From Gemmatimonadota bacterium (GTDB lineage Bacteria; Gemmatimonadota; Gemmatimonadetes; Gemmatimonadales; GWC2-71-9), in contig JAZDCZ010000083.1 in NCBI GenBank assembly GCA_036679605.1, positions 1 to 17,144 of the forward strand: a stretch of DNA of 17,144 nt. The letters run 5' to 3'. A program made the translations under genes and the position numbers. The notes under the pieces were generated by a model that made no database searches, was not told where the DNA came from, and was given only the letters and a program-made list of their open reading frames with translations. Each line of letters starts with the position of its first letter. The stretch's first letter is position 1. Below, piece after piece: positions 848 through 15,663 of this stretch.

Positions 848-2749
848 CTACTGTCGTGTCCTTTTGTCGTCGTAGAGAACACAAAAAAGAAGCATATCTA
901 CCGTTAGTGCGCACAGAGAGGTAGATCCGAGCAGAATGCCGAACTGCCGGGTAGGACCGAACGGACTCAAAGCAAAAAAGGCCAAACACGAGGCGGAGAC
1001 AAACGTGCTCCCGACACATGGCCGCCAACAGCGCATCAGCCCGCGAGTTACTCCGCGTCGTTCTCCGACGGCACTAGCCAAGTGCACGGTGTCATCGATG
1101 GCCATGCCGATGGCAATGGCGCCAATCATGAACGATGGTAATCCGATGGATACTTGGGCGATCGCTACGATCAAGATCAGGCAGCATACTGGCAGGAGAT
1201 TAACCCAAGCAGCGATAAGGGCCATCCTGAAGCTCCACGTCAAGAACCCTATGGACATAGCCGCAATTAGTGCCATGGCCGGCAGCGTGACTACCGTGAC
1301 AAGCTGTAGGATTCTTCCCGTAGTCGTGATCTGCGCAGCGACGCCACGCCATTGCAATTGGACATGATTCGTGTTTGCCCAAGCATGCCATTCTTCCTGT
1401 GCGGAAACCAGATCGGGTAACGCATCGCCTTGAGCCAGACCCCAGTATGTTGATTGGTCTCCCCCGACGATGGTCGAGACATTGAGAACCTTCCTCACGC
1501 CTACCGTTTTTTGCAGCATTTTCGTAGGGTCGGCTAATCCGGTCACCGTGACTTGAAAAGGCAATGTTCCGGTCAGGCGCGCGTCGATGGTGGAAAAATC
1601 GCGTGTGATGCGCGCATCAGTTGGAAAGAAAGCTAGAGGATTCGATTCAATATGCAGGTACGGTATCGCAACGATTGATGCGATCGTGATGAAGACACAA
1701 ACGAGGACAACGGCATTACCATGCCGGTGGACAATCGCGAGGTTGCAGCGTAGGAGTGGTTCAAGCCACCGGGCAGGAGGACGGCTCGACCGATCGCGAG
1801 GGGCAGGTGCGGGCAATAGCGTCACAACGGCGAGCCAGACCAGCGCCATGCCAAGAGTTCCGTGAAGGGCAAACAATCGGAGAGGCACCAAATCACTAAT
1901 GCCAGCACTAGCGATTCCTGCCGCCGTCGTTCCGCAACACAATAGCAATGTACCAGTGATACCGCGACGAAGCGCTCGATGCGCCGCGTACGAGTACCCC
2001 AACGCCATGATGAGCGGGGGAATCATGGACAGTGACATGTCAACAGGAATTCGTTGCCAAGATACGATGCCCAACAAGACGACCTGGCTGAGCACAATCG
2101 CCGCGACGCCCGTTACAGCCGCCTTCGGTTTTCCCGTGATCGACCATAGCCAAACACCGCCCATGAGATTGATGAACAGCATGATAACCGGCAATCGTTG
2201 CTGACTGAATGCGTTGAGCGACACATGAAAGATTGCGGGGCCCGCTAACGCAAACCGATCCAGACTTCGATCATACTCAGCGAGCGCTGCGTGAATCTGA
2301 CGAACGAAAGTCTCATCGTCAGAGTCGGTGCGTCGAAACACAAATATGCCTGCGTATGTCCCGTCTTCGCTGACGACGAATTTTTCGGGCGTGATTCCTT
2401 GCGAACGACCAGTCCTTTCAACGTAGGCCGAATCGAGACAAAAGCCTACTGCCTGTTGATGGCGGAGAGAATCGGCGATATCGGCTTCAACGAAAGCGTT
2501 TCGTTCAAATCCAACAATCGCATATGACTTAATCGCACCAACGGCCTCAAGGTCGGGAACCCAACTTCCCAGATCATTGTCAATCCGGTAGTGCTGCAAG
2601 CCCATCCCGCTCAGTGCCGCCGCAACGAGCCATAGTATCCATGCTATCGTTCTTCCCAGATTCTTGCGCGGAGGATTCTGTGGTAATCGGTTTGGAGCGA
2701 GATCATACAACGATTCTTCCCCGACGGTCGATGGTGTAGCGAGTGTCAC
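848..2749 (-). CDS. MMPL/RND-family transporter (lipid exporter type)
   Basis: Two repeats of (TM, soluble loop, several TMs); GMAIDDTVH motif in the second half and C-terminal FALSPFGPTRQFG typical of MMPL proteins. Start may be TTG at 2710 (GGGGA upstream, overlapping the GT stop). Confidence 0.8.
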   Translation of the reverse strand: MTLATPSTVGEESLYDLAPNRLPQNPPRKNLGRTIAWILWLVAAALSGMGLQHYRIDNDLGSWVPDLEAVGAIKSYAIVGFERNAFVEADIADSLRHQQAVGFCLDSAYVERTGRSQGITPEKFVVSEDGTYAGIFVFRRTDSDDETFVRQIHAALAEYDRSLDRFALAGPAIFHVSLNAFSQQRLPVIMLFINLMGGVWLWSITGKPKAAVTGVAAIVLSQVVLLGIVSWQRIPVDMSLSMIPPLIMALGYSYAAHRALRRGITGTLLLCCGTTAAGIASAGISDLVPLRLFALHGTLGMALVWLAVVTLLPAPAPRDRSSRPPARWLEPLLRCNLAIVHRHGNAVVLVCVFITIASIVAIPYLHIESNPLAFFPTDARITRDFSTIDARLTGTLPFQVTVTGLADPTKMLQKTVGVRKVLNVSTIVGGDQSTYWGLAQGDALPDLVSAQEEWHAWANTNHVQLQWRGVAAQITTTGRILQLVTVVTLPAMALIAAMSIGFLTWSFRMALIAAWVNLLPVCCLILIVAIAQVSIGLPSFMIGAIAIGMAIDDTVHLASAVGERRGVTRGLMRCWRPCVGSTFVSASCLAFFALSPFGPTRQFGILLGSTSLCALTVDMLLFCVLYDDKRTRQ

Positions 2750-3929
2750 GCCACGGAACGCTGCGTCTAATCGTCAGCCACCACCAGGATTGTGCCAGGA
2801 TGCGCACCACAACACATACGGAAAGCGGATACCAGAATAGGTCTATTCGCCGACATCCGCCCATGCCCCAAAACCGGTAGCTGGCGACCATCATTAAAAT
2901 CAGATGGCTCGCGCAAAGGGCGGCGAAACAGATGATATCCATGCTGATCTTCGCGCTCGTGTTCCAGGCCGAATAGAATTCCATCGCCAGCCAGACTGCG
3001 ACGATATATGGAAGAAGCGAGCCGACGATCAGCCAGATCATACTGAGCGCGATCTTGGTTCCGCTTCTCAACGCCCCGACATAGATTCTCGCCCAACCGT
3101 TCAAGATTGCACCATAGTTCTCGTACATGCGGACCGAAACAAGATCACGCCCGGACGCAACCCAGCATGACACCCCCGACTTTTTGGCATACTCGGCCAG
3201 CGGGATGTCTTCTATGATGGCGGAGCGTACTGCTCTGTGTCCGTCCATTCGTTCGTACGCTTCGCGTTCGATCAACAGGAACTGCCCGTTGGCAAATGCC
3301 ATGACGCTACGGGGTTCGTTTACACGTTGAGAACCGAACCAGAGGGCGATGATCCCGCCGCACAAGGGAATGATAGTGTGTTCCCAGAATCCCCCTGCGG
3401 TCTGCTGTGGCCAGAGCGTCAAGAACTTCACATTCCGTGTGCGGGCTTCTTCGATCGCACGTCCAACTGCGTGTGGCTTCAGTTTGCAATCGACGTCCGT
3501 AAAGAGCAGCCAATCGGCGAGAACATTTCGGGTTCCCTGCCACAAGGCATGCGACTTGCCCATCCACTTAGGCGGCAGATGGTCAATATGTTTAGCCTGC
3601 ATCCGAGGATCTGATCGAGCAAACTCTTGTGCAATTTCGTAGGTGGTGTCCTCGCTACGATCATCGATCACGAGGACCGAAAGTTTCGGGTAGTTTTGCG
3701 CTAGTACATCTCGCAGGCAGTTGGCCAAACCCTCGGATTCATTTCTCGCGGCGATCACCACGCAAACTGTCGGCATATCAGTGTGTTTCGGAAATTCTGT
3801 CGAGTTTTCCACAGCCACTTCGAGAAACAGCCCGTCGCGGCGGGCCCTACGTTGGGCGACGATAAGCCCCAGCCACACGTTACAAATAGCCCCCCATCCG
3901 GCAAGCAGTAATATGGTTTCGACGGCCAT
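2703..3929 (-). CDS. Membrane GT2 glycosyltransferase, CrtQ/CruC/HpnB-like
   Basis: N-terminal TM; VIAARNE, DDRSED, WMGKSHAL, FTDVD (DxD), NGQFLLI, IIEDIPLA, VRMY..GW motifs; C-terminal TMs. Confidence 0.9.
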   Translation of the reverse strand: MAVETILLLAGWGAICNVWLGLIVAQRRARRDGLFLEVAVENSTEFPKHTDMPTVCVVIAARNESEGLANCLRDVLAQNYPKLSVLVIDDRSEDTTYEIAQEFARSDPRMQAKHIDHLPPKWMGKSHALWQGTRNVLADWLLFTDVDCKLKPHAVGRAIEEARTRNVKFLTLWPQQTAGGFWEHTIIPLCGGIIALWFGSQRVNEPRSVMAFANGQFLLIEREAYERMDGHRAVRSAIIEDIPLAEYAKKSGVSCWVASGRDLVSVRMYENYGAILNGWARIYVGALRSGTKIALSMIWLIVGSLLPYIVAVWLAMEFYSAWNTSAKISMDIICFAALCASHLILMMVASYRFWGMGGCRRIDLFWYPLSVCVVVRILAQSWWWLTIRRSVPWRDTRYTIDRRGRIVV

Positions 3930-3938
3930 GTAACGTTC

Positions 3939-5465
3939 TCAATCTAGTGGGGGAAGGCGAAGCGTCTTATCAAGTAGATGTGGATCATCGTGCAGGTAGT
4001 CATCCCAGCGGACTCTCTGAGTACCGCGTTTACGTGGTTGCCCAGCGCTAAGAATGCCCGACGGCGCGAGCAGGAACCCTTCGGGGCGTCCGGCAAAATG
4101 AACAAGGCCATCTGGACCGAACATGCTGGCGACGCCGTCCTTGAGCGGTAGTGCATCAAGCGTGTCATAGCTCACAAGTTGATACGACGCATCCTCCGCA
4201 ATCTCCAGCGAATCTAGTATGGCTGGTGCGTCGATGCTGACGTGAAAGACTTCATGATAACCCGCAGAAGAAATAACTATCGGGTGAATGAGTTTGGACG
4301 GTGTATCGAATGTGTCGATTACAACGACATCATACTTTCCGGGAACACTCTTCTCAACAGCAAAACGTTTGCCAGTAAGCGGTACTCCAAACTCTTCACG
4401 CGCGGCGGACTCGATACGGTTGGCAACAAAAACCACGTGAGCGCATCCACAATTCAAAGAGGATTCGAGGAATATCGGAATGTCGTTGACGTCCAGCGTG
4501 ATTCTGAGCATTGAACCGTCAATGTGACCGGCCACCGGATCATCCTTGCTCATTTCCGGACGCTCGGAGAACCACCAAACATAGTTGAGCTGCCGCAAGC
4601 GACGCCCACCGATCTTGGCCACCGTTTCGTATGAGTAGACGGTCGGTTCTGTGGGATCGATACGAACCTTGATGTGCTGGCCCTTCGCTGACAACTTGAC
4701 GCCACCAATCCTGTCGAAGTTGGCGTCATAGCGGCGATTTGTAGGCCACTCCACGCCGATGATCGGAGCGTATTTCGTGATGAGCGCTGCGTCGTTCGAT
4801 TCGTGTGGATGCCGGATCGCAATGCGAGCGAAGGTCTTTTCGGCCTTAGCGAGACATTTCTCGGCAAGATGGGATTCTTCATACGCGATGCCATTGGCGG
4901 TCATGGACGCAGCCCACGCATACAGGACTTTGCGTGCCGATCGTCCCTTGTCGTCGGGTAAATCTTCGACGCCCTCGCGGATGCTCACCAGCTTCCTCTG
5001 TAATTCCGGTGACGTAAGCCGATCCACATCTCGCAAATCGCTTGCGAACGCCGCGCCCGCAAGTCTTGAGAAATGATGTTGCAGGACGGCGCGATCAGCC
5101 GAGCTTCTTGTGATCTTTGCTAACTTCTTGCGTGCGTAGGCCGGTAGTCGTTCGATCTCATTCGCTGTAGACGTCTGACCCAGTGCGTAGGCGCCGCGCA
5201 AAACCGCACGCGCCATTTTGCGCTGTACTAACACATCGCCAACTGCGAGGGCGTCATCCAGGTCGCTGAGGAGGGCTGTGTCAAACCGGTAGTACGGACT
5301 GACTGTCGTGTGACGCGCGGCAGCGTTTGTCACCGAAGTCTTCTCCGCATGATACGCAATCGAGAGTCCTAATCGATTCGGAACGCAACCGCTCTCGAAA
5401 CAAAAGCCAATGAGGCAAAAAAAAGGCGACACTCGATGTATCCATTGGCGAGTCCGTTGTTTCAT
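3939..5465 (-). CDS. Hypothetical exported protein, possible lipoprotein
   Basis: Long ORF within the operon; ATG at 5465 with AAGGTGA SD; basic N-terminus, hydrophobic stretch and imperfect lipobox ESG-C; contains NCGCAH, GYH and SMFGPDGLV..GR motifs. Confidence 0.75.
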   Translation of the reverse strand: MKQRTRQWIHRVSPFFCLIGFCFESGCVPNRLGLSIAYHAEKTSVTNAAARHTTVSPYYRFDTALLSDLDDALAVGDVLVQRKMARAVLRGAYALGQTSTANEIERLPAYARKKLAKITRSSADRAVLQHHFSRLAGAAFASDLRDVDRLTSPELQRKLVSIREGVEDLPDDKGRSARKVLYAWAASMTANGIAYEESHLAEKCLAKAEKTFARIAIRHPHESNDAALITKYAPIIGVEWPTNRRYDANFDRIGGVKLSAKGQHIKVRIDPTEPTVYSYETVAKIGGRRLRQLNYVWWFSERPEMSKDDPVAGHIDGSMLRITLDVNDIPIFLESSLNCGCAHVVFVANRIESAAREEFGVPLTGKRFAVEKSVPGKYDVVVIDTFDTPSKLIHPIVISSAGYHEVFHVSIDAPAILDSLEIAEDASYQLVSYDTLDALPLKDGVASMFGPDGLVHFAGRPEGFLLAPSGILSAGQPRKRGTQRVRWDDYLHDDPHLLDKTLRLPPLD

Positions 5466-5481
5466 AGGTAATACATCACCT

Positions 5482-6555
5482 TTAGTAGAGAGAAACCGAA
5501 GCGACATCTCGGTGCTCGACTTGAGGCTTTGGTGATCCGACGCCCATTAGCCCAAACCCTGTAGGCGCATTCGTCGGTGGATCGCAGAGCCTCACACAAT
5601 CTCTTTCAAAAACGTTTATCAATAGAACTGTCTCATCCAACCTTGAAAACACCAAAGGGCCTTCAGCTCCAGCCCGGTCGTACATAGGTCGATCCACTTG
5701 TTCATCGACCACTCCGAGGAGAACCCTGTCTCCATATGGGTAGTAGATCAGCTCTCGACCAACGGCCATGTCCAGTTCGAGGCAGCATCCGAATAGTGTA
5801 TTGCCATACCCTGACAGGTGGACTGCGTTCGGGAATGCTTCCGTTTGGAACGCCTTCATTTCGTTCGATTCGATGGCCATGCCGCCGTAGTGGACGCCGC
5901 AGATGTTCTCACGTTGCGTGGAACGCATTGAGTCAGCAAGAGCACGGATTACGACAGGTGTAGAGAAGAGCACTGTAATCGTTTGGGAGTTCAGAATCGC
6001 AAGGGCTTGATCGACGATGTGTTGTAGGTATCGCTGCGCAGCAAAGCTACCAGTAGCCAACTTCCTTGCCCACCGAGAATCGAAATCGACGCTGAACGGT
6101 GTCATCGAACCCGTTGTCCGAGCGATGGCGTCCGCAGCGCGGTCGATGATGTGCGGCCCGGACGGCCCTACATAAAGCCAAGTTCCACCCAATTGGAAAT
6201 CAACGTGCTTTGCGGCAATGACGAAAGGATCGACAAAGGCTTCCCGGAATTCGTTCTCCAGATATGCCGTCCAGGCAGGTTGGCCTAGCGTACCGCCGGT
6301 TTGTGCGATAATCAACTCGCATTTGCGATCCATCAGCGGTCTTGGAAGAAAATCAACAAGCTCGTATTTCGCGAGATCCGCCTGATCCATCATGGGGAAC
6401 CGGGCGAGATCAGCGACGCACATGATCTCGATGCGTGGATCGAACCCGAGTTCCTTGGCGCGGTCAAGCCAGTACGGGCTGCCTTGTTCAGGATCGAAGT
6501 GGATCGCGAGAACGTCGCGAAGCCGCGCCTCGATGCTCATATCGTGTCCTGTCAT
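5482..6555 (-). CDS. Adenylate-forming (ANL/PaaK-like) enzyme, EhpF-like
   Basis: HFDPEQGSPYWLDRAKELGFDPR N-terminus resembles EhpF-type proteins; P-loop-like QTGGTLG, GPSGPH, GGM and GYGNTL motifs. Start placed at ATG 6555 (alternative 6540), just after the hydrolase stop, rather than at 6696. Confidence 0.7.
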   Translation of the reverse strand: MTGHDMSIEARLRDVLAIHFDPEQGSPYWLDRAKELGFDPRIEIMCVADLARFPMMDQADLAKYELVDFLPRPLMDRKCELIIAQTGGTLGQPAWTAYLENEFREAFVDPFVIAAKHVDFQLGGTWLYVGPSGPHIIDRAADAIARTTGSMTPFSVDFDSRWARKLATGSFAAQRYLQHIVDQALAILNSQTITVLFSTPVVIRALADSMRSTQRENICGVHYGGMAIESNEMKAFQTEAFPNAVHLSGYGNTLFGCCLELDMAVGRELIYYPYGDRVLLGVVDEQVDRPMYDRAGAEGPLVFSRLDETVLLINVFERDCVRLCDPPTNAPTGFGLMGVGSPKPQVEHRDVASVSLY

Positions 6556-6562
6556 GTTCGCG

Positions 6563-7264
6563 CTACCTTGCCGGGAGAATGTCATGGTGTTGCAGAAACT
6601 CCAGAACCGTCGTCGCAACTTCCGTTTCATGGCCTCGGAAAAAATGCTCACCAGCAGGCAACTGGATTCGCATTTTGGGTTCACGAATCGACTCATACCA
6701 AGCCATCAATTCGGAAATGCCGCAAGTGAAGTCATTGTCGCTATGGAGCATGAGTAGCGGCACCGGGCACGCTGACAATTCCTCGAAAGAGTGCTGCTTG
6801 GGATTGGGGGAAATCAGGACGATTGCCTTAACGCCTGATCCTTGCAGATTCTTTACAACCGTCCAACACCCGAAGCTGTACCCGATCAACACCGGAGGAA
6901 AATCGCACCATTGACTGAGTGCCGCGATCGCCGACCCGGCATCGTCCGCCCAATCGTGTTCCTCATTGAAAGATCCTTTCGTCCAAAAAGTTGACATCAC
7001 ACTGGGCCAATCCGCAGGCCCACCTTCGCTACTTCCAACGCCGCCGTAGTCAAACGCTAGCGTTACCGTACCTCGTGACGTCAACGCTTTCGATAACGAA
7101 CTCACGACGTTGTTGCGCATATCTCCGCCGAGAAACGGGTGCGGTCCCGCGATCAAAGCGCAGCAATCAGCGCCAACATCGGGATAGGCAAGGAGGCCTG
7201 ACAGCATTCGTTCGCACCCTTGGATGCGAACGTTTTCTTCAACGAATCCCGTTGCGGTCAACAT
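6563..7264 (-). CDS. Alpha/beta-fold hydrolase (COG2945-like)
   Basis: PHPFLGGDMRNNVV, FDYGGVGSSEG, nucleophile elbow GYSFG, Asp in DNDF, His in GEHFF; start overlaps the SDR stop by 7 nt. Confidence 0.88.
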   Translation of the reverse strand: MLTATGFVEENVRIQGCERMLSGLLAYPDVGADCCALIAGPHPFLGGDMRNNVVSSLSKALTSRGTVTLAFDYGGVGSSEGGPADWPSVMSTFWTKGSFNEEHDWADDAGSAIAALSQWCDFPPVLIGYSFGCWTVVKNLQGSGVKAIVLISPNPKQHSFEELSACPVPLLMLHSDNDFTCGISELMAWYESIREPKMRIQLPAGEHFFRGHETEVATTVLEFLQHHDILPAR

Positions 7265-8796
7265 AGCACACCGGTGTGACTGATAACTCTTGGGCTTTCG
7301 TTACCGATCACGGGGAATTCTTTGAGGAATTCGCCGATGATGGGGACCATCTTTAGCGCCCGCTCCACATCTCCAAACATTTCGGCGCTGCCGTGGAAAA
7401 ACACATCTTGCAACGGTTTGCGGCAAGATACGACATCAACTAAATCCTCATACGACAAGCGGTACTCAAACTCCGGTATTAGCGGCGACGGTACAGCGTG
7501 GGTTTCCTTTAGTCGACCGCGCTCAAAACGGCTGATCCAACTTCCCCCGATTCGACCGGTGATTGTATACTGTACCACTGCGGTCAACTCTTCGACTTTC
7601 GCAACCACAGAACGGGGTACGGCCTTGGGCAGATAGCTCTCGAAGTACCATGTTGGATTGAAGCCTTCGGCAGGTGACTGGAAATCGTGGGCATCGCCGT
7701 GTGCTCGACACCAGTTGGTTGCTTGGGCGTACTTCATACACGCAGCAAACGCTGAGCCGTCAATCAAACGTTTCCCCGAAGGCGTGTCCACCATACGGCT
7801 AGACTCAAACGTCAGACCGTCGCGAAAGTAATCAAGGCAGATGTTTCCCAGCGAGTAAAATAGGTCTTCATAGTGGTTGGCATCCGCAAGCGGCCACGTC
7901 GCATTGCTGAATCGCCCGCCAGCTATGTCGAAGTATTGCTCCAGCCACCGTTTGACTTCCTTATGAGTGGGTGGATCGGGGTTGGTGACGTGATGCACCG
8001 AGGATTCGGTGGTTGGCTCCAGGCTGATGTTGGCGATCTGCCGGGCGGCCCAATCAACGGGTATAATATTACAGGTGGCATGAGAATGCCCAAGAATTCG
8101 GAATGGTATCTGATGGCGGTCAACCTTGTGGTTGCCATCCATGGCCCGTGCAAGTATCTCGGTCGCTCTGGCAACAAGATACAATCCCTTCATGGCGCTG
8201 GCTCGCCCCGTATGGCTGTCACCAAACAGAATCGACGGCCTGCAAATCGTTACTATTCCGTTGTCTTCGCCCCAAGCCCAAACAAGCCGCTCTGCTTCCC
8301 ACTTCGATCGTTCGTACTCGTTGCGAATCGGCGGAAGATTTTCGAAGATCGCTTCTGGCTGATGGCCGATTTGTTCGCCGCACACATAGGCTGTGCTGAC
8401 AAAAGAAAACCGGCGAATTTTAGCATTAGTGGCCTGCAATAGTATCGCGCGTGTGCCATCGATGTTTGTCATTGCTGGCTCGCCCGAACCGTTGGCATGG
8501 AAGGTTGTATTCCCTGCAGCGTGCAGAACCATGTCAACGCCGCTTATGTCCTCCCAGTTGAGTGAGTCCGGCAATTCTCCCTCGACGGGTAGGATACGCC
8601 CATTAGCGATAAGCGCCGAGAGATTGAGACCCATGTCCACGAGAAGCTTGCCAAGTCGTTCGGAAGTCTTGGATATCGGAGGCCGGAGCAATACGCGGCA
8701 TCTGATGTGCGGATGCGCGAGCAGTTCTGCAAGCACATAGTGTCCAAGAAATCCGGTCGCCCCAGTTAGGAACACGTCGATTGGCCTAGGTGTCAT
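7258..8796 (-). CDS. Extended SDR (fatty acyl-CoA/thioester reductase, NAD_binding_4-like) with C-terminal SCP2 lipid-binding domain
   Basis: TGATGFLG, HAAG, VSTAYVCG, YERSK (YxxxK), RPSILFG, IPVDW; the C-terminal VVQYTITG..GGSW...FFHGSAEMFGDVERALKM is SCP2-like. Confidence 0.85.
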   Translation of the reverse strand: MTPRPIDVFLTGATGFLGHYVLAELLAHPHIRCRVLLRPPISKTSERLGKLLVDMGLNLSALIANGRILPVEGELPDSLNWEDISGVDMVLHAAGNTTFHANGSGEPAMTNIDGTRAILLQATNAKIRRFSFVSTAYVCGEQIGHQPEAIFENLPPIRNEYERSKWEAERLVWAWGEDNGIVTICRPSILFGDSHTGRASAMKGLYLVARATEILARAMDGNHKVDRHQIPFRILGHSHATCNIIPVDWAARQIANISLEPTTESSVHHVTNPDPPTHKEVKRWLEQYFDIAGGRFSNATWPLADANHYEDLFYSLGNICLDYFRDGLTFESSRMVDTPSGKRLIDGSAFAACMKYAQATNWCRAHGDAHDFQSPAEGFNPTWYFESYLPKAVPRSVVAKVEELTAVVQYTITGRIGGSWISRFERGRLKETHAVPSPLIPEFEYRLSYEDLVDVVSCRKPLQDVFFHGSAEMFGDVERALKMVPIIGEFLKEFPVIGNESPRVISHTGVLC

Positions 8797-11065
8797 GCGT
8801 TACCTCGCGTGTTAGTGCCACGAGATTCCGTCCGTTTCCGTTATCGCCTACTCCCACATCGCGAGACAAGGCGACAAGGGCACCATTGCATGATGAACCG
8901 GCCCCGGCCGTGCAACCGAAGCAGTGGGCGACCGTGTTGATCGCCCTATTTTGGAGTACCGAAGCGTCAAGATCACGGATGTGAGCGGGTAGGCCAGAGG
9001 TAAGTGGGATGTCCATGACTTGATTGAAATCGCAGTCGTAAAGGCGTCCATCGTATCCCACCGATAGGGTTCGCCGGCACATCAATCCGTCCACTGTATT
9101 TGGATTGAACGCGCTAACCAGTCGATCCATATACACTGACCACAGGCCTTGGCGTTTCAAGTCGTGTTCAAAGCGGTTGATGGGCATGTTGTTCATGGCA
9201 AAAAGCCGATCAAAACGGACCCCGAAGCGATTGAATAATTCACGTTTGTAGTGTTGCTCCAAGTCGTGCTGCGGGGCACCGAGATCAATCCCGGCAGGGT
9301 TATGCACCAGGTTTAGTGTCAAGCCCATTTCAGGCATGGCATATCCCAGTTCGTTGAGTTTCTGCAGCGCGGCGATACTTTTGGTGAAGGTTCCGACTCC
9401 CCGTTGACGATCAGCGATGTCCGCCTCGTCGGATGGCAGCGAGGCAGAGATCTGGATACCGTGTTCAGCCAGGAACTCGGGCAGGTCTTCGTAGCCCGGC
9501 TCGAAGAGGATCGTCAAGTTGCAACGGTCCACGACTCGACAGCCCAGTCGAGATGCCTCGCGCGCCAGGTATCGAAAATGAGGATTCATCTCTGGAGCGC
9601 CGCCAGTAATGTCAAGCGTCTCGATGTCGAAGCGGCGCAGTGCGTCAAGTACGAGTTCCACGGTCTCTCGAGTCATTTCCTCGGTTCGATTGGGGCCTGC
9701 ATCGACATGGCAATGGTGGCAAGCCTGATTGCAGCGACGCCCCATGTTGACCATGAGCGTAGATAGAGCAAGGGCGCGAAGTTCTTTGGGCCGACGATTC
9801 ATCGCGTGCCCTGCAAAGCACCGGCCGCCAGTGTTCTCAAGCGCCTGGTACGGGAGTATCGATTCACCGCTAGCAGCACCAGCTAACTGTGATTCATCGA
9901 GATCGGTTGGCAGCTGCCGGTGTTCTGTTACGCAGGAAATATCGTTGCCACCGAACAGCCCCCCCAGTGCGCCCCAGAATTCCTCCAACCACTTTTCGCT
10001 CGCCATAGCAAGACCATCCTCAAGCTCGTGCAACCAGAATTGTGACCAAGCGTCTCGTCGCCACGAACGGTATATGGCTCTCGCGTCTTCACCGGCCTTT
10101 CCCGGTTGTGGAAGGGGCAAACCAAAGGCCACATCGCCTTTCATAAATTGTATTTCCGATTCGGGACCGGCGCAAAGGCAGTGTGCGATCGCCACAGTTC
10201 GCGATGGCACATGATAAGTAAACGCAACTGCGACGAGTGCTCCGGCCTGCACCAGAGATAGGTTGGTTGGAAAAATGACTTGGATGAAGTCGCCGTCCAA
10301 AACCTTGACTAGACGAGGCTGCTCGATGATGTCGAACCCTCCGCGCTGTGTGTAGGCAACTTCGACCAGCCATGCGTTACTGGAGAGAATGTCGGAAACG
10401 ATCGTGGTGTGCTTGGTGTTGAGCGGCGAGCCTTGATGTGAAAGTGTTGAAACAACCGCCCTGCGTGGCAAGGATGGATCCGGGTCATCGAAAAAGGGAC
10501 TGCCCCATTTACACTGGCTGCATCCGCAGCAGAAGTAGAGTCGTTTCAGCGCCCAGTAGTAGCCTTCGCGCCAACGACGCCCGGCCTCCTGCTCCCCCAA
10601 GCGGGGGAGTTCTTCAACAAATCGATCCCAGAGTGCCTGTTTGTGTTGAGCTATCCGTCGGTTGGCGCGATCGCCGTCGGCGTCAGCCTGGGGCTTGGGT
10701 GCGGACATCGGTCCGTCGAGATGTCGAACCAGCGGGTTGACGCCGGGACCAGCGTGCATCGAGTGAGCGTACAGGGTTTGATCTGTCACTCGATCAAACA
10801 GGCAAACCACCGACACGATGGCGCCGTCAACAATCGGGCCACCTGTCACTGGGAACATCAAACGGACCAAGGAATCGGAGAGGTCTTTGTATACGATCGG
10901 TCGTGGTTCAACGCTTAGTCCTTTGCCGTCGAAGACGAAACGTAGCGCCCGTATCGGCTGACTATCGAGTACAGAGCGCACGAGGACATCGGACACTTCC
11001 GGTCGCCGCGTGTGACTTTGCGGATACATCGTGAGCGTAATGTCTTCATATGCGCGGTGCATCAT
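8786..11065 (-). CDS. arsS: ArsS-type radical SAM protein (rSAM + DUF3641 Cys-rich tail) with a ~400 aa N-terminal extension of two tandem unknown domains
   Basis: CNQACHHCHVDAGP (9733-9710), LDITGGAPEMNP, DRCNLTIL, LMCRRTLSVGYDGRLYDCDFNQ and HCFGCTAGAGSSCNG are characteristic of the ArsS family. ATG at 11065 has a GGAG SD. The symbol applies to the C-terminal domain only. Confidence 0.85.
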   Translation of the reverse strand: MMHRAYEDITLTMYPQSHTRRPEVSDVLVRSVLDSQPIRALRFVFDGKGLSVEPRPIVYKDLSDSLVRLMFPVTGGPIVDGAIVSVVCLFDRVTDQTLYAHSMHAGPGVNPLVRHLDGPMSAPKPQADADGDRANRRIAQHKQALWDRFVEELPRLGEQEAGRRWREGYYWALKRLYFCCGCSQCKWGSPFFDDPDPSLPRRAVVSTLSHQGSPLNTKHTTIVSDILSSNAWLVEVAYTQRGGFDIIEQPRLVKVLDGDFIQVIFPTNLSLVQAGALVAVAFTYHVPSRTVAIAHCLCAGPESEIQFMKGDVAFGLPLPQPGKAGEDARAIYRSWRRDAWSQFWLHELEDGLAMASEKWLEEFWGALGGLFGGNDISCVTEHRQLPTDLDESQLAGAASGESILPYQALENTGGRCFAGHAMNRRPKELRALALSTLMVNMGRRCNQACHHCHVDAGPNRTEEMTRETVELVLDALRRFDIETLDITGGAPEMNPHFRYLAREASRLGCRVVDRCNLTILFEPGYEDLPEFLAEHGIQISASLPSDEADIADRQRGVGTFTKSIAALQKLNELGYAMPEMGLTLNLVHNPAGIDLGAPQHDLEQHYKRELFNRFGVRFDRLFAMNNMPINRFEHDLKRQGLWSVYMDRLVSAFNPNTVDGLMCRRTLSVGYDGRLYDCDFNQVMDIPLTSGLPAHIRDLDASVLQNRAINTVAHCFGCTAGAGSSCNGALVALSRDVGVGDNGNGRNLVALTREVTHDT

Positions 11066-11185
11066 TCTTAACTCTCCGGTCCATCGGGGAAAGCATATAT
11101 ATCGAGACTTTGTAGGCAAGCGATGACCAGCCAGATTTGTTCGCGTGCGAGTTGTTGCGAAAAAGTTGACGTGGCCGTCTTATTC

Positions 11186-11674
11186 TTACGTCTCATGGGC
11201 ACGTTCCAATCTCTGGTTGATGTCGCTTTGCGGCGCGGAGGAGGATACGAGTTCACATGCCGCCAAGTATTCGGTTGCGAATTCGGGCGGAAACACTTCG
11301 AGTAGGTATTCGTTTTCGATCCAGACCTCGATCACGCGGAAGACGCGCCTGCGATGGATTTCAGCACGCCATCCGAAAGCGCGAGCGAGCTCCAACACAC
11401 GATCGGCGCTGGCGGATACTTGGATCGCCGTGTGTGAACCGGTGAATCTTCCGTACGAATCGCTGTCCAACAGCTCGCACGGTTTTCCCGGTTCGCCAGG
11501 GTGGATTTCGATCTCCTTTCGGTACAGTTCGATCAGCGATCCGGGTTCGCCGAAAGTCACGAAATAGCAGCCACGGTGGAGAAAATCGAAAGTCGCACCT
11601 TCGACGAGTTCGGCAAGCGCTCGTGCGACTCGCTTCGGTTCTCGAACTGGAATGGAAGTGTGGAGAATCCGCAT
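11186..11674 (-). CDS. VOC (glyoxalase/bleomycin-resistance fold) family protein
   Basis: Paired beta-alpha-beta-beta-beta pattern with candidate metal ligands: H in ILHTSI, E in LIELY, H in SHTAI, E in LLEVF; first gene of the operon. Confidence 0.65.
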   Translation of the reverse strand: MRILHTSIPVREPKRVARALAELVEGATFDFLHRGCYFVTFGEPGSLIELYRKEIEIHPGEPGKPCELLDSDSYGRFTGSHTAIQVSASADRVLELARAFGWRAEIHRRRVFRVIEVWIENEYLLEVFPPEFATEYLAACELVSSSAPQSDINQRLERAHET

Positions 11675-11785
11675 AGTGCGTATCTATCATTACCGCCGAT
11701 TAGCTCCGCCGGCCCGTTCAACTGAAAGCTCGGCTACCCCCGCGTCTCGGGCGTTTTGGGTGGCCGCACCCACGTTACACCAAAA

Positions 11786-11820
11786 CCGAATTTTCCGCGC
11801 CAAAGCTGCAATTTTTGCAG
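11786..11820. promoter_or_regulatory. Putative regulator binding sites in the divergent promoter region
   Basis: Perfect palindrome CTGCAA-TTT-TTGCAG (11806-11820) plus a degenerate copy CCGAATTTTCCGC (11786-11798) offset by 21 bp; a TATGAT -10-like box at 11849-11854 precedes the kinase. Confidence 0.5.
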
Positions 11821-11881
11821 TCAGCTACCTCCATCGGACGGGCGACGTTATGATGCAGGCGCGAACCCAACGGAGGCACCG

Positions 11882-13378
11882 ATGACCCTTGCGAAGAGGA
11901 TGACGCTCAAAACCTGTGTTCTAACAACGGCAATCGTCATCGTTGCCGTATCCGCTGCATGGGGCTTGCTGGCGGCGCGGAAGTCGGTGCGGATTGCGAG
12001 CGACGAGTATGCCGAGTTGCGCATGATCCTCAACCTTAACGAACATCTCATGACAGTAAGGGGCACGATCGAAGCCGGAGCAACCCTGGAAGGCGCGGAT
12101 GCCGAACTTTTAGAAGCCGTACGCGAATTGCGGAATCTCCTCGGTTTCCAGGACCAACAGCATAGGGATATCGCCCCTCACGAGGAGGAAGAGGGCAGGT
12201 ATCTACAAGCGCTGGAGTCGGATGTACGCAAAGTGGCGGCCTCGCTAACGACGCAATCCGGCGAAGTGGAGGTAGCCGCTGCTCTCGCCGGTCTCAAGGC
12301 GGCGCAGGCTCAGCTCAAGCACTTGGCAAACGAAATGGATGAGACGATAGCTCTTTCGCATCGAGCATCGAGCCGAACGCTCCAGGTAACATTGATCGTG
12401 TTGGTCCTCGTCTCATGTGCTATGATTCTGACGACCGTGCTGGTCAACATCGCGTTATACCGAAGCGTGGTAGTGCCGATACGACGCCTTCGTGACACGG
12501 TGAGGATGCTGGCATCGGGGCGGTTCGACAAGCGCCTTCCGCAAACCAATGATGATGAGTTTGGGCAGCTCGCCCGAGACTTCAATCAGATGGCGGCGGA
12601 GCTTGACGAACTCTATCACGACTTGGAGCAACGTGTTCGTGAAAAGAGTCGAGAACTCGTTCGTTCTGAGCGCCTCGCAGGCATTGGCTACCTCGCGGCT
12701 GGGGTCGCACATGAGATCAACAATCCACTCAGTATCATCTCGGGGCACGCCGAACTCACGCTGCGGCGAATCCGTAAGCCGACGGATGCACGCGAACAAG
12801 AGGTCACCGAACAGGCGCTCCGCATCATCCGCGACGAATCCTTCCGTTGTAAGGGAATCATCGAAAAGCTGTTGTCCTTGTCTTCCGGTGGAGACGCCGA
12901 ACGTACGCGAGTCCCCCTCGATCAGATCGTGGACGATGTCGCAACGATGCTGCGATCGTTGAAGCAGTACCGCGGTCGAAAAGTCACCGTCGAATTCGCT
13001 CCCGGCTCGGATGTATTGGGCAATGAAACGGAACTCAAGCAGGTTGTACTCAATCTTACCGTCAACGCCTTGGAGGCCGTTGAGCCTGATGTGGGCGAAG
13101 TGCAGCTCAAGGGTAAGCGGCACAACGGCACCGTAGAACTTATCGTCTCGGACAACGGCCACGGAATGACACACGAGACGCGAGAGCACGTATTCGATCC
13201 TTTCTTCACGCAACGAACAGGATCCAAGAGGCGCGGCTTCGGGCTAGGCCTGTCAATCACACACGCCATTGTTGAATCACACGGTGGCAGGATCACGGCC
13301 CAGAGCGATGGGCCCAATCAGGGGAGTCGCTTCATAGTCGAACTCCCAGTGTTTTCTGCGGAGGAAGACAAAGCATGA
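11882..13378 (+). CDS. Membrane sensor histidine kinase (TM-periplasmic-TM-HAMP-HisKA-HATPase)
   Basis: GGAGG SD before ATG 11882; HAMP (PIRRL...DEFGQLARDFNQM), H-box AHEINNPL, N-box QVVLNLTVNA, DNGHGM, FDPFFT, GLGLS. Confidence 0.95.
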   Translation: MTLAKRMTLKTCVLTTAIVIVAVSAAWGLLAARKSVRIASDEYAELRMILNLNEHLMTVRGTIEAGATLEGADAELLEAVRELRNLLGFQDQQHRDIAPHEEEEGRYLQALESDVRKVAASLTTQSGEVEVAAALAGLKAAQAQLKHLANEMDETIALSHRASSRTLQVTLIVLVLVSCAMILTTVLVNIALYRSVVVPIRRLRDTVRMLASGRFDKRLPQTNDDEFGQLARDFNQMAAELDELYHDLEQRVREKSRELVRSERLAGIGYLAAGVAHEINNPLSIISGHAELTLRRIRKPTDAREQEVTEQALRIIRDESFRCKGIIEKLLSLSSGGDAERTRVPLDQIVDDVATMLRSLKQYRGRKVTVEFAPGSDVLGNETELKQVVLNLTVNALEAVEPDVGEVQLKGKRHNGTVELIVSDNGHGMTHETREHVFDPFFTQRTGSKRRGFGLGLSITHAIVESHGGRITAQSDGPNQGSRFIVELPVFSAEEDKA

Positions 13379-14070
13379 CCAGATGCCTCAAGCCGACCGA
13401 GGAGACGACAGTGATGATCGTGGAGGATGAAGCACGCCTTCGCGATGTTCTCGTGTCCAGCGCTCAAGAGTGCGGATTCCGTGCGAAGGCGGTTCGTGCC
13501 GCAGAAGAGGCCATCGCGCAGATGGAACAGGATCCGTGTGACATCGTCATGCTTGATCTCAATCTCCCTTGCATGGACGGTCTGCGGTGCTTTGAAATCG
13601 TGCGTGAACGTTGGCCGGCAACATCTGCGATAATCCTTACCGGATTTGGAACCCTGGAGGCAGCGCAGCGGGCGATTCGCCTCGGCGTCGTGGAGTTTCT
13701 GACGAAACCGGCATCCCTCGGCGACATCGAACGGGCACTCCATCGAGCTTGGCGCATGCGGTTCGAGTTGTCGGAGGATCAAGTCGACGACATCCCGCCA
13801 ATCACAACGAATGAAGCCAGGGAAGCAGTCCAGCATGATTCACCACGCACGATGCACGAGATCGAGCGCGAAAGCATCACCGCAGCGTTGGACCGCCATG
13901 GAGGCAACCGGGAAGCGGCTGCAGCCGAGCTGGGTATGAGTACGCGCAAGCTCTATTATCGTTTGAGTGAACACAGGAGCATTGATGCACGCGGTGCAGG
14001 AGTGCCTGCGCCATCTTATTGCCCAGACATTACCCACAATCCGGTAAACGGCCCCACAGTGTCTGACTAA
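13375..14070 (+). CDS. Response regulator, REC + Fis-type HTH (no sigma54 AAA+ domain)
   Basis: VEDE, phosphoacceptor LDLNLP, LTGFG, FLTKP; HTH GGNREAAAAELGMSTRKLYYRL; ATGA overlap with the kinase. Confidence 0.93.
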   Translation: MTRCLKPTEETTVMIVEDEARLRDVLVSSAQECGFRAKAVRAAEEAIAQMEQDPCDIVMLDLNLPCMDGLRCFEIVRERWPATSAIILTGFGTLEAAQRAIRLGVVEFLTKPASLGDIERALHRAWRMRFELSEDQVDDIPPITTNEAREAVQHDSPRTMHEIERESITAALDRHGGNREAAAAELGMSTRKLYYRLSEHRSIDARGAGVPAPSYCPDITHNPVNGPTVSD

Positions 14071-14270: not shown

Positions 14271-15314
14271 TCAACTCATCAGCCGCGATTCGACATCCTC
14301 GTACGACGGGCACTCGGCGTAGATTTTCTCGAAGTCCGCCCGGGCGCGGCGGCGATGGCCGAGAGATTCGTACACGAGGCCACGTTCGTAGCGCAGGGTC
14401 CGCAGCAGGTCGGCACTTCGCCCTCGCTTCCTGTGAAGAGCAAACGTCAACACATCCCTTGCAGCGGTATGCAACCCGAGTGCGCTCAGCGCTTTCGCCT
14501 TGTAGAGAAGTGTCGCCGCGTGAACATCAGATTCGTTCTTCACGTTCGCCGTCAGCGCCACAACTTGCTTGCAGGCTGGCTTGTCGCCGACGTCCTCCAC
14601 CAGAAGCTCAGCCAGAGAAAGGGTCACGAGCATGGCATCTGGATTTCTGCGACGAAGTTGCCTCAGGCAGTTGGCTGCATCTCGCCATCGGTGTTGCTGT
14701 TGGTGAACCTCGGCGAGAGCAAGTAGTACGCCCGAGATGTCCGCGTTGATGTCCGCCGAGACTTCGTCCGTGATCGTCAGAGTAGCTGCAGCTTCCACGC
14801 CGTACTTGGCAAAGAACTTACCGAGTGCACTTCGGCGCGACGCCGCCAATTTCAGATGGCCCTCGGCCGCGTCGAACTTGCCTCGTTTCAGCGCCAGCAT
14901 GCCGGCCATGAACGACGCATCCGCCAGGTTATTGGCTTGTTCGAAGTGGCGCATCGCCGCCGATTCCTTGCCGCGCACCAGCGCCCGCATACCATCGACG
15001 AAGTGTTCCTCTCTCTTGGGTGTGACGAGTCGCCGAAAGAATCCAAGGGTAAGTCGCTCGTTCGGCCTAGCCACTGACTCGCCCGTCGCCTGCGCGGCGC
15101 CCTTACCGGAGCCACGCTGCGAACGCCGGGATCCACCGCTCGTCGTCGTGTAGAACAGCCCGGTGCCGGGAATGCCAACGGTCCGCCTCACACCTCGCCG
15201 TCCGACGGTCACCTTGGCTCCGCGCGGCCCGAATGACAACGACGGTCCCGACTTGCTAAGGTTCAGCGTCAGCCCTGGGAGGATCTTCATTCGTCGAAAA
15301 AAACGGAATCCCAT
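14271..15314 (-). CDS. DUF4236 domain + TPR-repeat protein
   Basis: MGFRFFRRMKILPGLTLNLSKSGPSLSFGPRGAKVTVG...GIPGTGLFY is the DUF4236 pattern; the rest is helical and TPR-like (YERGLVYESLG..ARADFEKIY). Start set at ATG 15314. Confidence 0.85.
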   Translation of the reverse strand: MGFRFFRRMKILPGLTLNLSKSGPSLSFGPRGAKVTVGRRGVRRTVGIPGTGLFYTTTSGGSRRSQRGSGKGAAQATGESVARPNERLTLGFFRRLVTPKREEHFVDGMRALVRGKESAAMRHFEQANNLADASFMAGMLALKRGKFDAAEGHLKLAASRRSALGKFFAKYGVEAAATLTITDEVSADINADISGVLLALAEVHQQQHRWRDAANCLRQLRRRNPDAMLVTLSLAELLVEDVGDKPACKQVVALTANVKNESDVHAATLLYKAKALSALGLHTAARDVLTFALHRKRGRSADLLRTLRYERGLVYESLGHRRRARADFEKIYAECPSYEDVESRLMS

Positions 15315-15321
15315 GCAGGGC

Positions 15322-15330
15322 ATTATAACA
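15322..15330 (-). promoter_or_regulatory. Extended -10 promoter (TGtTATAAT) of the DUF4236 gene
   Basis: Minus strand reads TGTTATAAT-GCCCTGC-ATG; no SD sequence between the box and the ATG. Confidence 0.6.
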
Positions 15331-15663
15331 GGCGGTACGAAAATGCGGCAGGCAACAAGGCCACTAAAAGAAGAACACGGACAGCGTGAGCGGACGCACG
15401 TTCTGCTGAACAGGCCGTCGAGGCACGGGCCGGGGGACACATGCCAACATTCAAGGAAGAAGTCAGTTCCGGCGGGAAAGGGAACGGGACCGCAGTTGGT
15501 CGTCAGGGCCAGCGACCGGAGGAGCCAGCAGCGTTCGAGTGGGAAAGGCCGATGCGGCGGGAACCCCAGGGCAGACGACGGATTTACGGGATGAAGTGTC
15601 GGTTCCGCCTGCCCCTGCGAGGCGGTCTGTTCGTCATCCGTTAGGGCGATTCGACCCCAATCA

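Follow-up and report, generated by a model that had tools for sequence, protein, structure and literature searches.

The arsenosugar pathway of Synechocystis sp. PCC 6803 combines ArsM with ArsS, the latter defined by the NCBIfam model TIGR04167. Lipid export of the mycobacterial MmpL type works with fatty acyl-AMP ligases and periplasmic lipoproteins. EhpF and EhpG, of the Pantoea D-alanylgriseoluteic acid cluster, are said to have been proposed by Bera et al. in 2010 to reduce a carboxylate to an aldehyde via the adenylate. A published table annotates EhpG as an aldehyde-dehydrogenase-family protein (PMC11278526). ArsS adenosylates DMAs(III) to give DDMAA, according to passages of two reports (PMC13598754; PMC12159101).

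The locus described here was found in a window (the whole stretch of DNA that was analysed) of 17,144 nucleotides. Its operon may couple a planctomycete lipid gene set to a dedicated ArsS paralogue, and so make and export an arsenic-bearing amphiphile, a reading with a probability of about 0.4. The eight operon ORFs, in order from the first gene, and the two neighbouring regulatory genes are as follows.

11186..11674, minus strand: first operon gene, a 162-aa protein of no recognised family (no Pfam, NCBIfam or PDB-sequence match)
8786..11119, minus strand: fusion protein, a duplicated domain of no known family joined to ArsS (profile searches, homologue alignment)
10475..11002, minus strand: repeat 1 of the N-terminal domain, about residues 40-215, boundaries approximate (alignments, AF2 model)
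9920..10414, minus strand: repeat 2 of the N-terminal domain, about residues 236-400 (AF2 secondary structure, single-repeat homologues)
8876..9778, minus strand: ArsS domain, with radical SAM core CxxxCxxC (C463, C467, C470) and Cys-rich DUF3641 (TIGR04167, tree, conserved positions)
7258..8796, minus strand: SDR of the thioester-reductase type (NAD_binding_4), ending in an SCP2-like domain (Pfam, NCBIfam)
6563..7264, minus strand: 233-aa alpha/beta serine hydrolase (Pfam)
5482..6696, minus strand: EhpF-like single-domain ANL adenylating enzyme, likely start near 6555 (PDB match)
3939..5507, minus strand: lipoprotein with a conserved C-terminal NLP-like core (residues 236-522) and an invariant C-G-C (alignment, AF2, fold comparison)
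2703..3929, minus strand: membrane glycosyltransferase of family GT2, whose closest models, HpnB and CruG, are both matched below cut-off (Pfam, NCBIfam)
848..2749, minus strand: probable divergent RND/MMPL-superfamily membrane protein (BLASTP to MMPL-family neighbours, NCBIfam)
11756..13378, plus strand: sensor histidine kinase with HAMP, HisKA and HATPase_c domains, oriented divergently to the operon (Pfam)
13375..14070, plus strand: response regulator, a receiver domain with a Fis-type HTH and without an AAA+ domain (Pfam)

All eight ORFs of the operon were located on the minus strand at these coordinates, confirming them as real and co-oriented genes. They had also been described as mostly overlapping or less than 20 nt apart. 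The coordinates give an 11-nt overlap between the fusion gene stop and the reductase gene start, a 7-nt overlap between the reductase and hydrolase genes and a 9-nt gap between the lipoprotein and GT2 genes; the other junctions vary with the choice of start, from an overlap to a gap of at most 16 nt. The description fails for the first, small gene, which lies 66-120 nt away from the fusion gene. The absence of arsM, arsC and arsR from the window was also borne out, with no arsM-like match and no ars-type Pfam family among the 19 window ORFs scanned. The histidine kinase adjoins the cluster in four related loci (L025, L026, L106 and L109), and the response regulator is kept together with it across loci.

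As in Synechocystis ArsS, the C-terminal 300 residues of the fusion protein pass the equivalog cut-off and keep the radical SAM motif and all the cysteines of DUF3641. The TIGR04167 score is 418.3 bits over residues 448-748 (421.4 bits in a six-frame search), against a cut-off of 300, and both PF04055 and PF12345 were matched by Pfam. When 16 ArsS domains from fusions were compared with 76 ordinary ones, 67 positions proved common to at least 97% of the whole set. These include all seven cysteines (C463, C467, C470, C681, C696, C733 and C736) that the fusion has in common with the 76 ordinary domains. Only four substitutions are specific to the fusion clade, one of which, Q456M, adjoins the cluster-binding motif; methionine occupies that site in none of the 76 ordinary domains. 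In the tree the fused domains form one clade (support 99) on a long stem branch of 0.34. Score, tree and conserved positions place the radical SAM portion firmly in the ArsS family, as originally predicted, and it is likely a dedicated paralogue of ordinary ArsS. A sequence search of the PDB found no ArsS structure.

Unlike Synechocystis ArsS, the fusion protein adds a duplicated N-terminal domain of 430 residues and falls in a separate clade of the ArsS tree. Its true start is probably the ATG near 11065 (MMHR...), since homologues begin at MHR or MMHR. The architecture of two copies of an unknown domain followed by ArsS was confirmed by profile searches, by the AF2 model of the N-terminal domain (pLDDT 81.6), in which repeat 2 has the secondary-structure pattern of repeat 1, and by single-repeat homologues that match both halves. 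A CxxCxxC-W motif (C197, C200, C203) is invariant in repeat 1 across the homologue alignments and absent from the single-repeat homologues. The fusion family is tiny, with 36 proteins in 5.8 billion, and the duplicated domain is represented 33 times among 1.84 billion proteins. Copies of the N-terminal domain are also found on their own, joined to hemerythrin (three of nine homologues scanned) and in genome G023, where the same search gave no ArsS-domain match. Such a distribution speaks for a general function in redox or metal chemistry and against one tied to arsenic. The stand-alone copies lie near a ferredoxin-flavin oxidoreductase and multihaem cytochromes.

The enzymes predicted downstream of the fusion were recovered in each case. 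The reductase matches NAD_binding_4 (PF07993) at 107.5 bits against a cut-off of 20.1, and TIGR01746 at 104.5, below the cut-off of 213. Its SCP2 domain scores 17.2 bits in the window protein, under the cut-off of 21.3, and exceeds it in orthologues (29.4 and 31.8), so that the SDR-SCP2 assignment holds. The hydrolase has a Pfam match and a GYSFG serine motif read from the sequence, and its L028 orthologue has a weak Thioesterase match. The predicted ANL ligase, a 404-aa protein, has no Pfam AMP-binding match (the L028 orthologue reaches 21.7 bits against 29.9), yet it matches EhpF (PDB 3l2k/3hgu) at E 1.3e-27. Residues 62-368 align with 27-333 of the 366-residue EhpF chain, nearly its whole length, and both proteins are without the C-terminal ANL subdomain. 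Distant orthologues align only from residue 54-59 onwards. Unlike in the Pantoea system, the partner in this locus is an NAD_binding_4 reductase with SCP2 instead of EhpG, and no phenazine genes are encoded.

The sixth gene was correctly called a lipoprotein. Behind a hydrophobic stretch its lipobox has a nearly invariant G40 and an invariant C41 in all 12 aligned sequences. The AF2 model (pLDDT 93.5) gives a core with the fold of Nep1-like proteins (NLPs; PDB 3st1, 9wsc and 5nnw) at an identity of only 8-12%. VIA-align returned Z scores of 10.3 (rmsd 3.6 Å over 173 residues) and 10.2 (3.8 Å over 178 residues) against NLP structures, compared with 3.4 for the next-best structure, and Foldseek matched the NLP fold at E 2e-3 and probability 0.99. 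The conserved heptapeptide of the HDWE-type NLP signature is found in none of 102 family members. Unlike NLPs, the protein relies on a lipobox for anchoring, carries an invariant C-G-C and His of its own, and gives no sign of acting as a toxin. NLP structures have been solved with hexosamines bound, according to the PDB entry titles, and the modelled core has a predicted sugar-lipid-binding NLP fold.

The GT2 prediction was upheld by PF00535 at 75.3 bits; the scores against HpnB (158.2, cut-off 379) and CruG (130.5, cut-off 600) lie well below threshold. The last gene had been called an MMPL protein. It has no Pfam match, PF03176 included, but BLASTP aligns it at 19-24% identity with MMPL-positive proteins encoded next to related modules (E 3e-15 and 3e-12), which makes it a probable divergent member of the RND superfamily. 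PF03176 is present in 4 of its 21 closer homologues (E ≤ 1e-100) and in six further, distant matches. The database version of the protein begins 13 residues later, and a natural GT2-RND fusion exists (P0187). The assignment of the small first gene to the VOC family is not supported: its product has no match to VOC/glyoxalase PF00903 even at E 10, is absent from the nine six-frame PF00903 matches in the genome, and aligns with VOC proteins of the same genome at an hhalign probability of 5.1%. The sole VOC lead is an Atlas match at rank 23 with a score of 0.88. The protein is 73-81% identical in L025, L026, L105 and L106, and its gene was not found in L028, L108 and L109.

Two export and modification systems resemble this gene set in part. 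With mycobacterial MmpL export it shares the joint encoding of an adenylating enzyme, a transporter of RND/MMPL type and a lipoprotein that is exported; the differences are that there is no polyketide synthase or acyltransferase, that the transporter is very divergent and that the lipoprotein has another fold. The hopanoid side-chain genes, which include the adenosylhopane synthase HpnH, likewise combine an adenosylating enzyme of the radical SAM type with GT2, RND-transporter and SDR genes. In NCBIfam, HpnB is nearest for the GT2, HpnN is nearest for the RND protein (E 0.0014, 16.6 bits against a cut-off of 752) and HpnA is listed for the SDR (53.5 bits against 368), all far below threshold. 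Here, by contrast, the radical SAM enzyme is of the ArsS type, and no squalene-hopene cyclase is encoded in the window.

All relatives of the cluster are in uncultured Planctomycetota. Genes for the reductase, hydrolase, ANL enzyme or lipoprotein adjoin the fusion gene at 8 of the 10 informative loci, arranged in three different orders, and this conservation in other loci shows that the arrangement is not due to chance. The lipoprotein gene is present in all five fusion genomes. The eight genes do not form a constant set: the reductase-SCP2, hydrolase, ANL enzyme and lipoprotein are constant partners of the fusion, whereas the small first gene and the genes for the GT2 and the RND protein vary among loci. 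In genome G043 the fusion gene is not linked to the lipid genes. Four other Planctomycetota genomes hold the lipoprotein and reductase genes without any ArsS, three of them with MMPL and two with the ANL and hydrolase genes; ArsS is thus an add-on to the lipid genes.

The association with arsenic is drawn from the family. An ArsM-like gene accompanies 30 of 75 ordinary ArsS loci, which ties the ArsS family to arsenic. In contrast to the ArsM-ArsS pathway, the fusion gene here is set among lipid genes, and neither arsM nor any other ars gene was found in any of the 12 fusion loci, two to four of which are too short to judge. Elsewhere in the host genomes, where arsM had been suggested as a search target, ArsM-like genes are present in all four other fusion genomes, although they pass the curated cut-off in only one of these genomes. 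Two of the four (G042 and G044) also have a separate, ordinary ArsS gene with an ArsM-like gene next to it. The type of ArsM that goes with ArsS, common in the collection at 95 of 401 genomes, was absent from G041 at E ≤ 1e-40. The arsM genes in the window's own bin may be another organism's.

For an arsenic-bearing amphiphile, the starting material would be a trivalent methylarsenical made by an ArsM-type methyltransferase encoded elsewhere in the genome. Its arsenic would receive the 5'-deoxyadenosyl radical that the ArsS domain releases by cleaving SAM, as is described for ArsS acting on DMAs(III). The duplicated domain, with its invariant CxxCxxC, would serve either to bind the arsenical or to bring the enzyme into contact with its partners. 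On the lipid side, a carboxylate, probably that of a fatty acid, would be activated by the adenylating EhpF-like enzyme and taken by the reductase to an aldehyde or alcohol, with SCP2 shielding the chain. The lipid alcohol would then be glycosylated by the GT2 and the product carried by the RND protein across the inner membrane to the NLP-fold lipoprotein. The neighbouring two-component system would switch the operon on. The original prediction of an operon that makes and exports an amphiphile fits these partner genes; the arsenic content of the product is unproven and follows from homology. The gene set matches no described cluster in the literature searched, again as predicted.

The lipid genes and the fusion could instead share no more than their regulation. 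The product of the fused ArsS would then be a soluble organoarsenical, formed in detoxification or as an arsenosugar, while the lipid genes separately remodel the envelope, both being transcribed for the same stress with no covalent bond between arsenic and lipid. Such an arrangement would suit the lipid genes found without ArsS, the unlinked fusion of G043, the two-component system conserved beside the cluster and the fact that no enzyme for joining an arsenosugar to a lipid is recognisable. It is nevertheless unlikely: the linkage persists through three gene orders and also where the two-component system is missing (L028 and L108), every fusion genome has the lipoprotein gene, and two genomes already own an ordinary arsM-arsS set for soluble products.

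An acceptor other than arsenic is quite improbable. By the logic of HpnH, a carbon or sulfur centre of the lipid would take up the 5'-deoxyadenosyl radical from the ArsS-derived domain, giving a ribosyl-extended lipid for the GT2 and RND proteins. So few clade-specific changes disfavour a switch from arsenic to carbon, four substitutions being set against 67 near-invariant shared positions that take in the whole Cys-rich domain; the long stem branch, Q456M, the sub-threshold hopanoid matches and the fusion loci without ars genes all speak for the switch. The N-terminal domain might also be a redox or iron-sulfur support, as an electron donor or as oxygen protection for the radical SAM cluster, in which case the fusion would be an ordinary ArsS suited to more oxidising conditions, and its lipid neighbourhood would have no meaning for the pathway. 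The hemerythrin fusions, the redox neighbours of the stand-alone copies and the invariant CxxCxxC agree with this. It is very improbable, however, as it leaves unexplained both the repeated linkage to lipid genes and the persistence of ordinary ArsS copies in the same genomes, and the single-repeat homologues are without the Cys motif.

Arsenolipids are widespread in marine organisms, and no description of genes for their assembly beyond ArsM and ArsS was found in the literature searched. In the fullest form of the arsenic-bearing reading, which is doubtful, the cluster would be the first genetically defined arsenolipid assembly line. The CxxCxxC of the duplicated domain would present the arsenical to a dedicated ArsS paralogue, the adenosyl- or ribosyl-arsenical would enter a reduced, glycosylated fatty chain, and the RND pump would pass the product to a surface lipoprotein of NLP fold. 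The cluster offers a concrete gene set for expression and testing, and brings to light two protein domains without a known family, namely the duplicated N-terminal domain and a bacterial lipoprotein family with the NLP fold. Should the arsenic link fail, the locus would still represent a lipid gene set of planctomycetes that is absent from the literature searched, together with an ArsS paralogue recruited to it.

The reading preferred here, at a probability of roughly 40%, is that a dedicated ArsS paralogue tailors an exported lipid with an arsenical, every chemical step being conjectural. No description of this ArsS fusion or of its cluster was found in the papers searched. The window is an entire contig (C417) of 17,144 bases. 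Eight head-to-tail ORFs occupy 11674 to 848 on the minus strand, and a histidine kinase and response regulator, recognised by Pfam, are transcribed divergently from this operon. Four of the eight operon proteins are assigned by Pfam: the 777-aa fusion (radical SAM and DUF3641), the 512-aa reductase (NAD_binding_4 and a sub-threshold SCP2), the alpha/beta hydrolase and the GT2 protein.

Features of the window (position, strand, feature)
706-730, minus: hairpin of 10 pairs with a weak T tail, ~120 nt past the RND stop
848..2749, minus: 633-aa RND-type protein
2703..3929, minus: GT2 glycosyltransferase
3939..5507, minus: 522-aa lipoprotein
5482..6696, minus: 404-aa ANL enzyme
6563..7264, minus: hydrolase
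7258..8796, minus: 512-aa reductase-SCP2 protein
8786..11119, minus: 777-aa fusion of a duplicated N-terminal domain and ArsS
11186..11674, minus: 162-aa small protein
11756..13378, plus: sensor histidine kinase
13375..14070, plus: response regulator
14271-15440, minus: 389-aa protein with DUF4236 and TPR repeats

The hairpin is a possible operon end, though the scan yields comparable hits no more often than chance would. Promoter and terminator consensus scans of the window gave no excess over shuffled expectation, and Rfam and tRNA scans of it were empty.

Residues 448-748 of the fusion match ArsS (NCBIfam TIGR04167) at 418.3 bits against a cut-off of 300. A comparison of 16 fusion with 76 ordinary ArsS domains found 67 positions with a conservation of 97% or more, among them the three cluster cysteines and four DUF3641 cysteines. 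The ArsS-type radical SAM assignment of the original prediction is borne out by this score and these common positions. The ArsS tree held 93 domains, 15 from known fusions and 78 from loci in which no N-terminal domain was visible. The 15 fusion rows, together with the domain of locus L029, whose upstream side is cut off at the contig start, form one clade (support 99, stem 0.34) separate from the ordinary planctomycete ArsS clade. A search of the PDB by sequence returned no ArsS structure onto which clade-specific changes could be mapped. ArsS chemistry is treated in PMC12159101 and PMC13598754.

Ordinary ArsS loci carry an ArsM-like gene in 30 of 75 cases, mostly directly upstream. G042 and G044, two of the other four genomes with a fusion, have an ordinary stand-alone ArsS next to an ArsM-like methyltransferase, and the fusion is therefore an extra, specialised paralogue there and not the sole ArsS. 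The order in G042 is arsM, a PiT-like transporter gene (assigned by sequence motif) and arsS. This ordinary operon (L120, G042:C226, 1093-4493, minus strand) encodes an ArsM-like protein of 409 aa with a Cys-rich tail, a 383-aa PiT-like transporter and a 337-aa ArsS, in the same genome as a fusion operon. Co-occurrence with ArsM was discarded as evidence: the ArsS-associated ArsM type is present in 95 of the 401 genomes sampled and did not turn up in genome G041 at E <= 1e-40, so it has no discriminating value.

The loci compared are listed below. The alignment values of L107 equal those of L028, and the pair was counted once; L110 and L111 were left out of the informative count as too short.

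Gene content of fusion loci and of lipid gene sets lacking the fusion
L025, L106: window's order, with kinase and regulator, small protein, fusion, reductase, hydrolase, ANL enzyme, lipoprotein, GT2
G042: window's order, divided between two contigs
L105: short fragment, window's order
L109: kinase, regulator, fusion, reductase, hydrolase, ANL enzyme
L028: reductase, ANL enzyme, hydrolase, lipoprotein, fusion; between ribosomal-protein genes and dnaB
L108: reductase (opposite strand), fusion, lipoprotein, hydrolase
L027 (G043): fusion in a different context
L029: downstream side without lipid genes, upstream side missing
L139, L140 (no fusion): lipoprotein with thioredoxin-like tails, MMPL, reductase-SCP2
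L141 (no fusion): lipoprotein, MMPL, reductase, ANL enzyme, hydrolase
L142 (no fusion): lipoprotein, reductase, ANL enzyme, hydrolase

The proposed eight-gene cluster stands in so far as the fusion is linked to lipid genes in eight of the ten informative loci, in three gene orders; its RND gene was not found after GT2 in L025, L106 or G042. Matching by equal contig size suggests 11 further fusion contigs with the lipoprotein gene, and eight with the RND gene.

The identities of the operon proteins were refined individually. The 404-aa protein has no Pfam match, yet aligns at E 1.3e-27 to crystal structures of the single-domain ANL enzyme EhpF, for which a mechanism has reportedly been proposed. 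An OleBCD reading of the hydrolase, ANL enzyme and SDR was rejected, as no thiolase is present and the reductase reaches only 27 and 23 bits with the two OleD-type (2-alkyl-3-oxoalkanoate reductase) models, whose cut-offs are 580. The genes ehpF and ehpG appear in tables of PMC11278526. The 633-aa protein, earlier labelled “MMPL”, aligns to MMPL-family proteins of related modules (identity 19-24%, E 3e-15 and 3e-12), and PF03176 is present in 10 of its 27 homologues among the matches listed; the window protein itself has zero Pfam matches. One protein (P0187, 1018 aa) naturally joins a GT2 glycosyltransferase to an RND-like transporter, both of this cluster type, and so ties the two genes together. 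The 162-aa first gene product had been called a VOC protein, a label that found no support: Pfam was empty even at E 10, as were NCBIfam and the PDB by sequence and by profile, the gene was absent from six-frame PF00903 matches across the genome, and hhalign put the probability at 5.1% when it was compared with eight VOC proteins from its own genome.

All 12 aligned sequences of the 522-aa lipoprotein keep the lipobox Cys, and its conserved core (residues 236-522) was modelled at pLDDT 93.5. NLP structures align with this core at Z 10.3 over 173 residues (rmsd 3.6 A) and at Z 10.2 over 178 residues (rmsd 3.8 A), the next chain being at Z 3.4, and Foldseek ranks the same NLP proteins top at E 2e-3. 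NLPs bind glycolipid head groups. Structures of NLPs have been deposited with bound hexosamines, according to PDB entry titles. The lipoprotein family differs from NLPs in having its own invariant C-G-C and His, and the NLP signature was found in none of its 102 members. A role as periplasmic receiver for a glycosylated lipid would fit the modelled fold.

The bin is called Gemmatimonadota and is 96.5% complete and 6.3% contaminated, with 6.7 Mb in 434 contigs, against 2-4.4 Mb in its 40 relatives. The fusion is absent from all 40, and the DUF4236-TPR flanking gene was not found in any of them. The named relatives of the cluster are all Planctomycetota or Phycisphaerae bins, which suggests mis-binning or gene transfer of the window contig. 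The GC and tetranucleotide composition of the bin is unimodal and does not set this contig apart, a result that is not decisive. Since the window contig may have been mis-binned or acquired by transfer, the arsM genes of the bin, on C61 and C346, cannot be credited to its host. The only ArsM match of the bin over the curated cut-off (L009, C61:824-1618, minus strand, 317.6 bits) contains one in-frame TAG.

Residues ~20-430 of the fusion form one domain in two copies, and a single-repeat homologue aligns to both halves. In the AF2 model (pLDDT 81.6, pTM 0.80) a pattern of two helices, a four-stranded sheet and a long helical hairpin appears twice, once in each repeat. Foldseek was empty at E <= 0.001. 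The best VIA-align match was a designed cystatin-fold protein (Z 7.9, 74 residues), and NTF2-like and cystatin proteins came next, at Z 5-6; these scores lie inside the background range, and the likeness is therefore one of arrangement only. No solved-structure fold beyond background was retained from either search. The domain has 33 cluster representatives in 1.84 billion and occurs in two of the 401 sampled genomes of G041's phylum. It is also free-standing, as single or double repeats. One stand-alone single repeat (L118, G019:C98, 2033-2575) is flanked by genes for a metallo-beta-lactamase-fold protein, a ferredoxin-flavin oxidoreductase and two multihaem cytochromes. P0039, P0040 and P0042 (550-594 aa) carry an N-terminal hemerythrin and the duplicated domain, with CxxCxxC retained.

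Other explanations of the fusion operon were weighed. Shared regulation alone is unlikely to account for the linkage. Against it, the lipoprotein gene is present in all five fusion genomes; in its favour, that gene lies in G043 with the reductase, hydrolase and ANL enzyme on a contig other than that of the fusion. It is quite unlikely that the enzyme acts on a non-arsenic acceptor. In favour of such an acceptor, an ArsM-like gene was found in none of 12 fusion loci, 2 to 4 of them too short to judge; against it, just four positions (Q456M, V555I, I642M and T643N) separate the clades. That the N-terminal domain gives redox support, with no pathway meaning, is held to be highly improbable. In favour of redox support, an invariant CxxCxxC-W closes repeat 1, in a low-confidence loop of the model, and three of nine homologues scanned bear the double domain behind a hemerythrin domain. 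The fusion family is tiny: of the 36 proteins that its search returned from 5.8 billion, 35 have the ArsS domains attached.

The reading of an exported lipid tailored with an arsenical is set against a wider distribution of the lipid genes. The lipoprotein family, with 102 proteins, is larger than the fusion family and occurs in 13 of the 401 genomes, six at E <= 1e-30, and the N-terminal domain is missing from four of those six, whose loci are L139 to L142. A divergently oriented Stf0-type sulfotransferase gene (L142, 10995-11729, plus strand) adjoins one such fusion-less set. Given that the lipid genes occur without the fusion, they are the older element and the ArsS fusion is an add-on to them.
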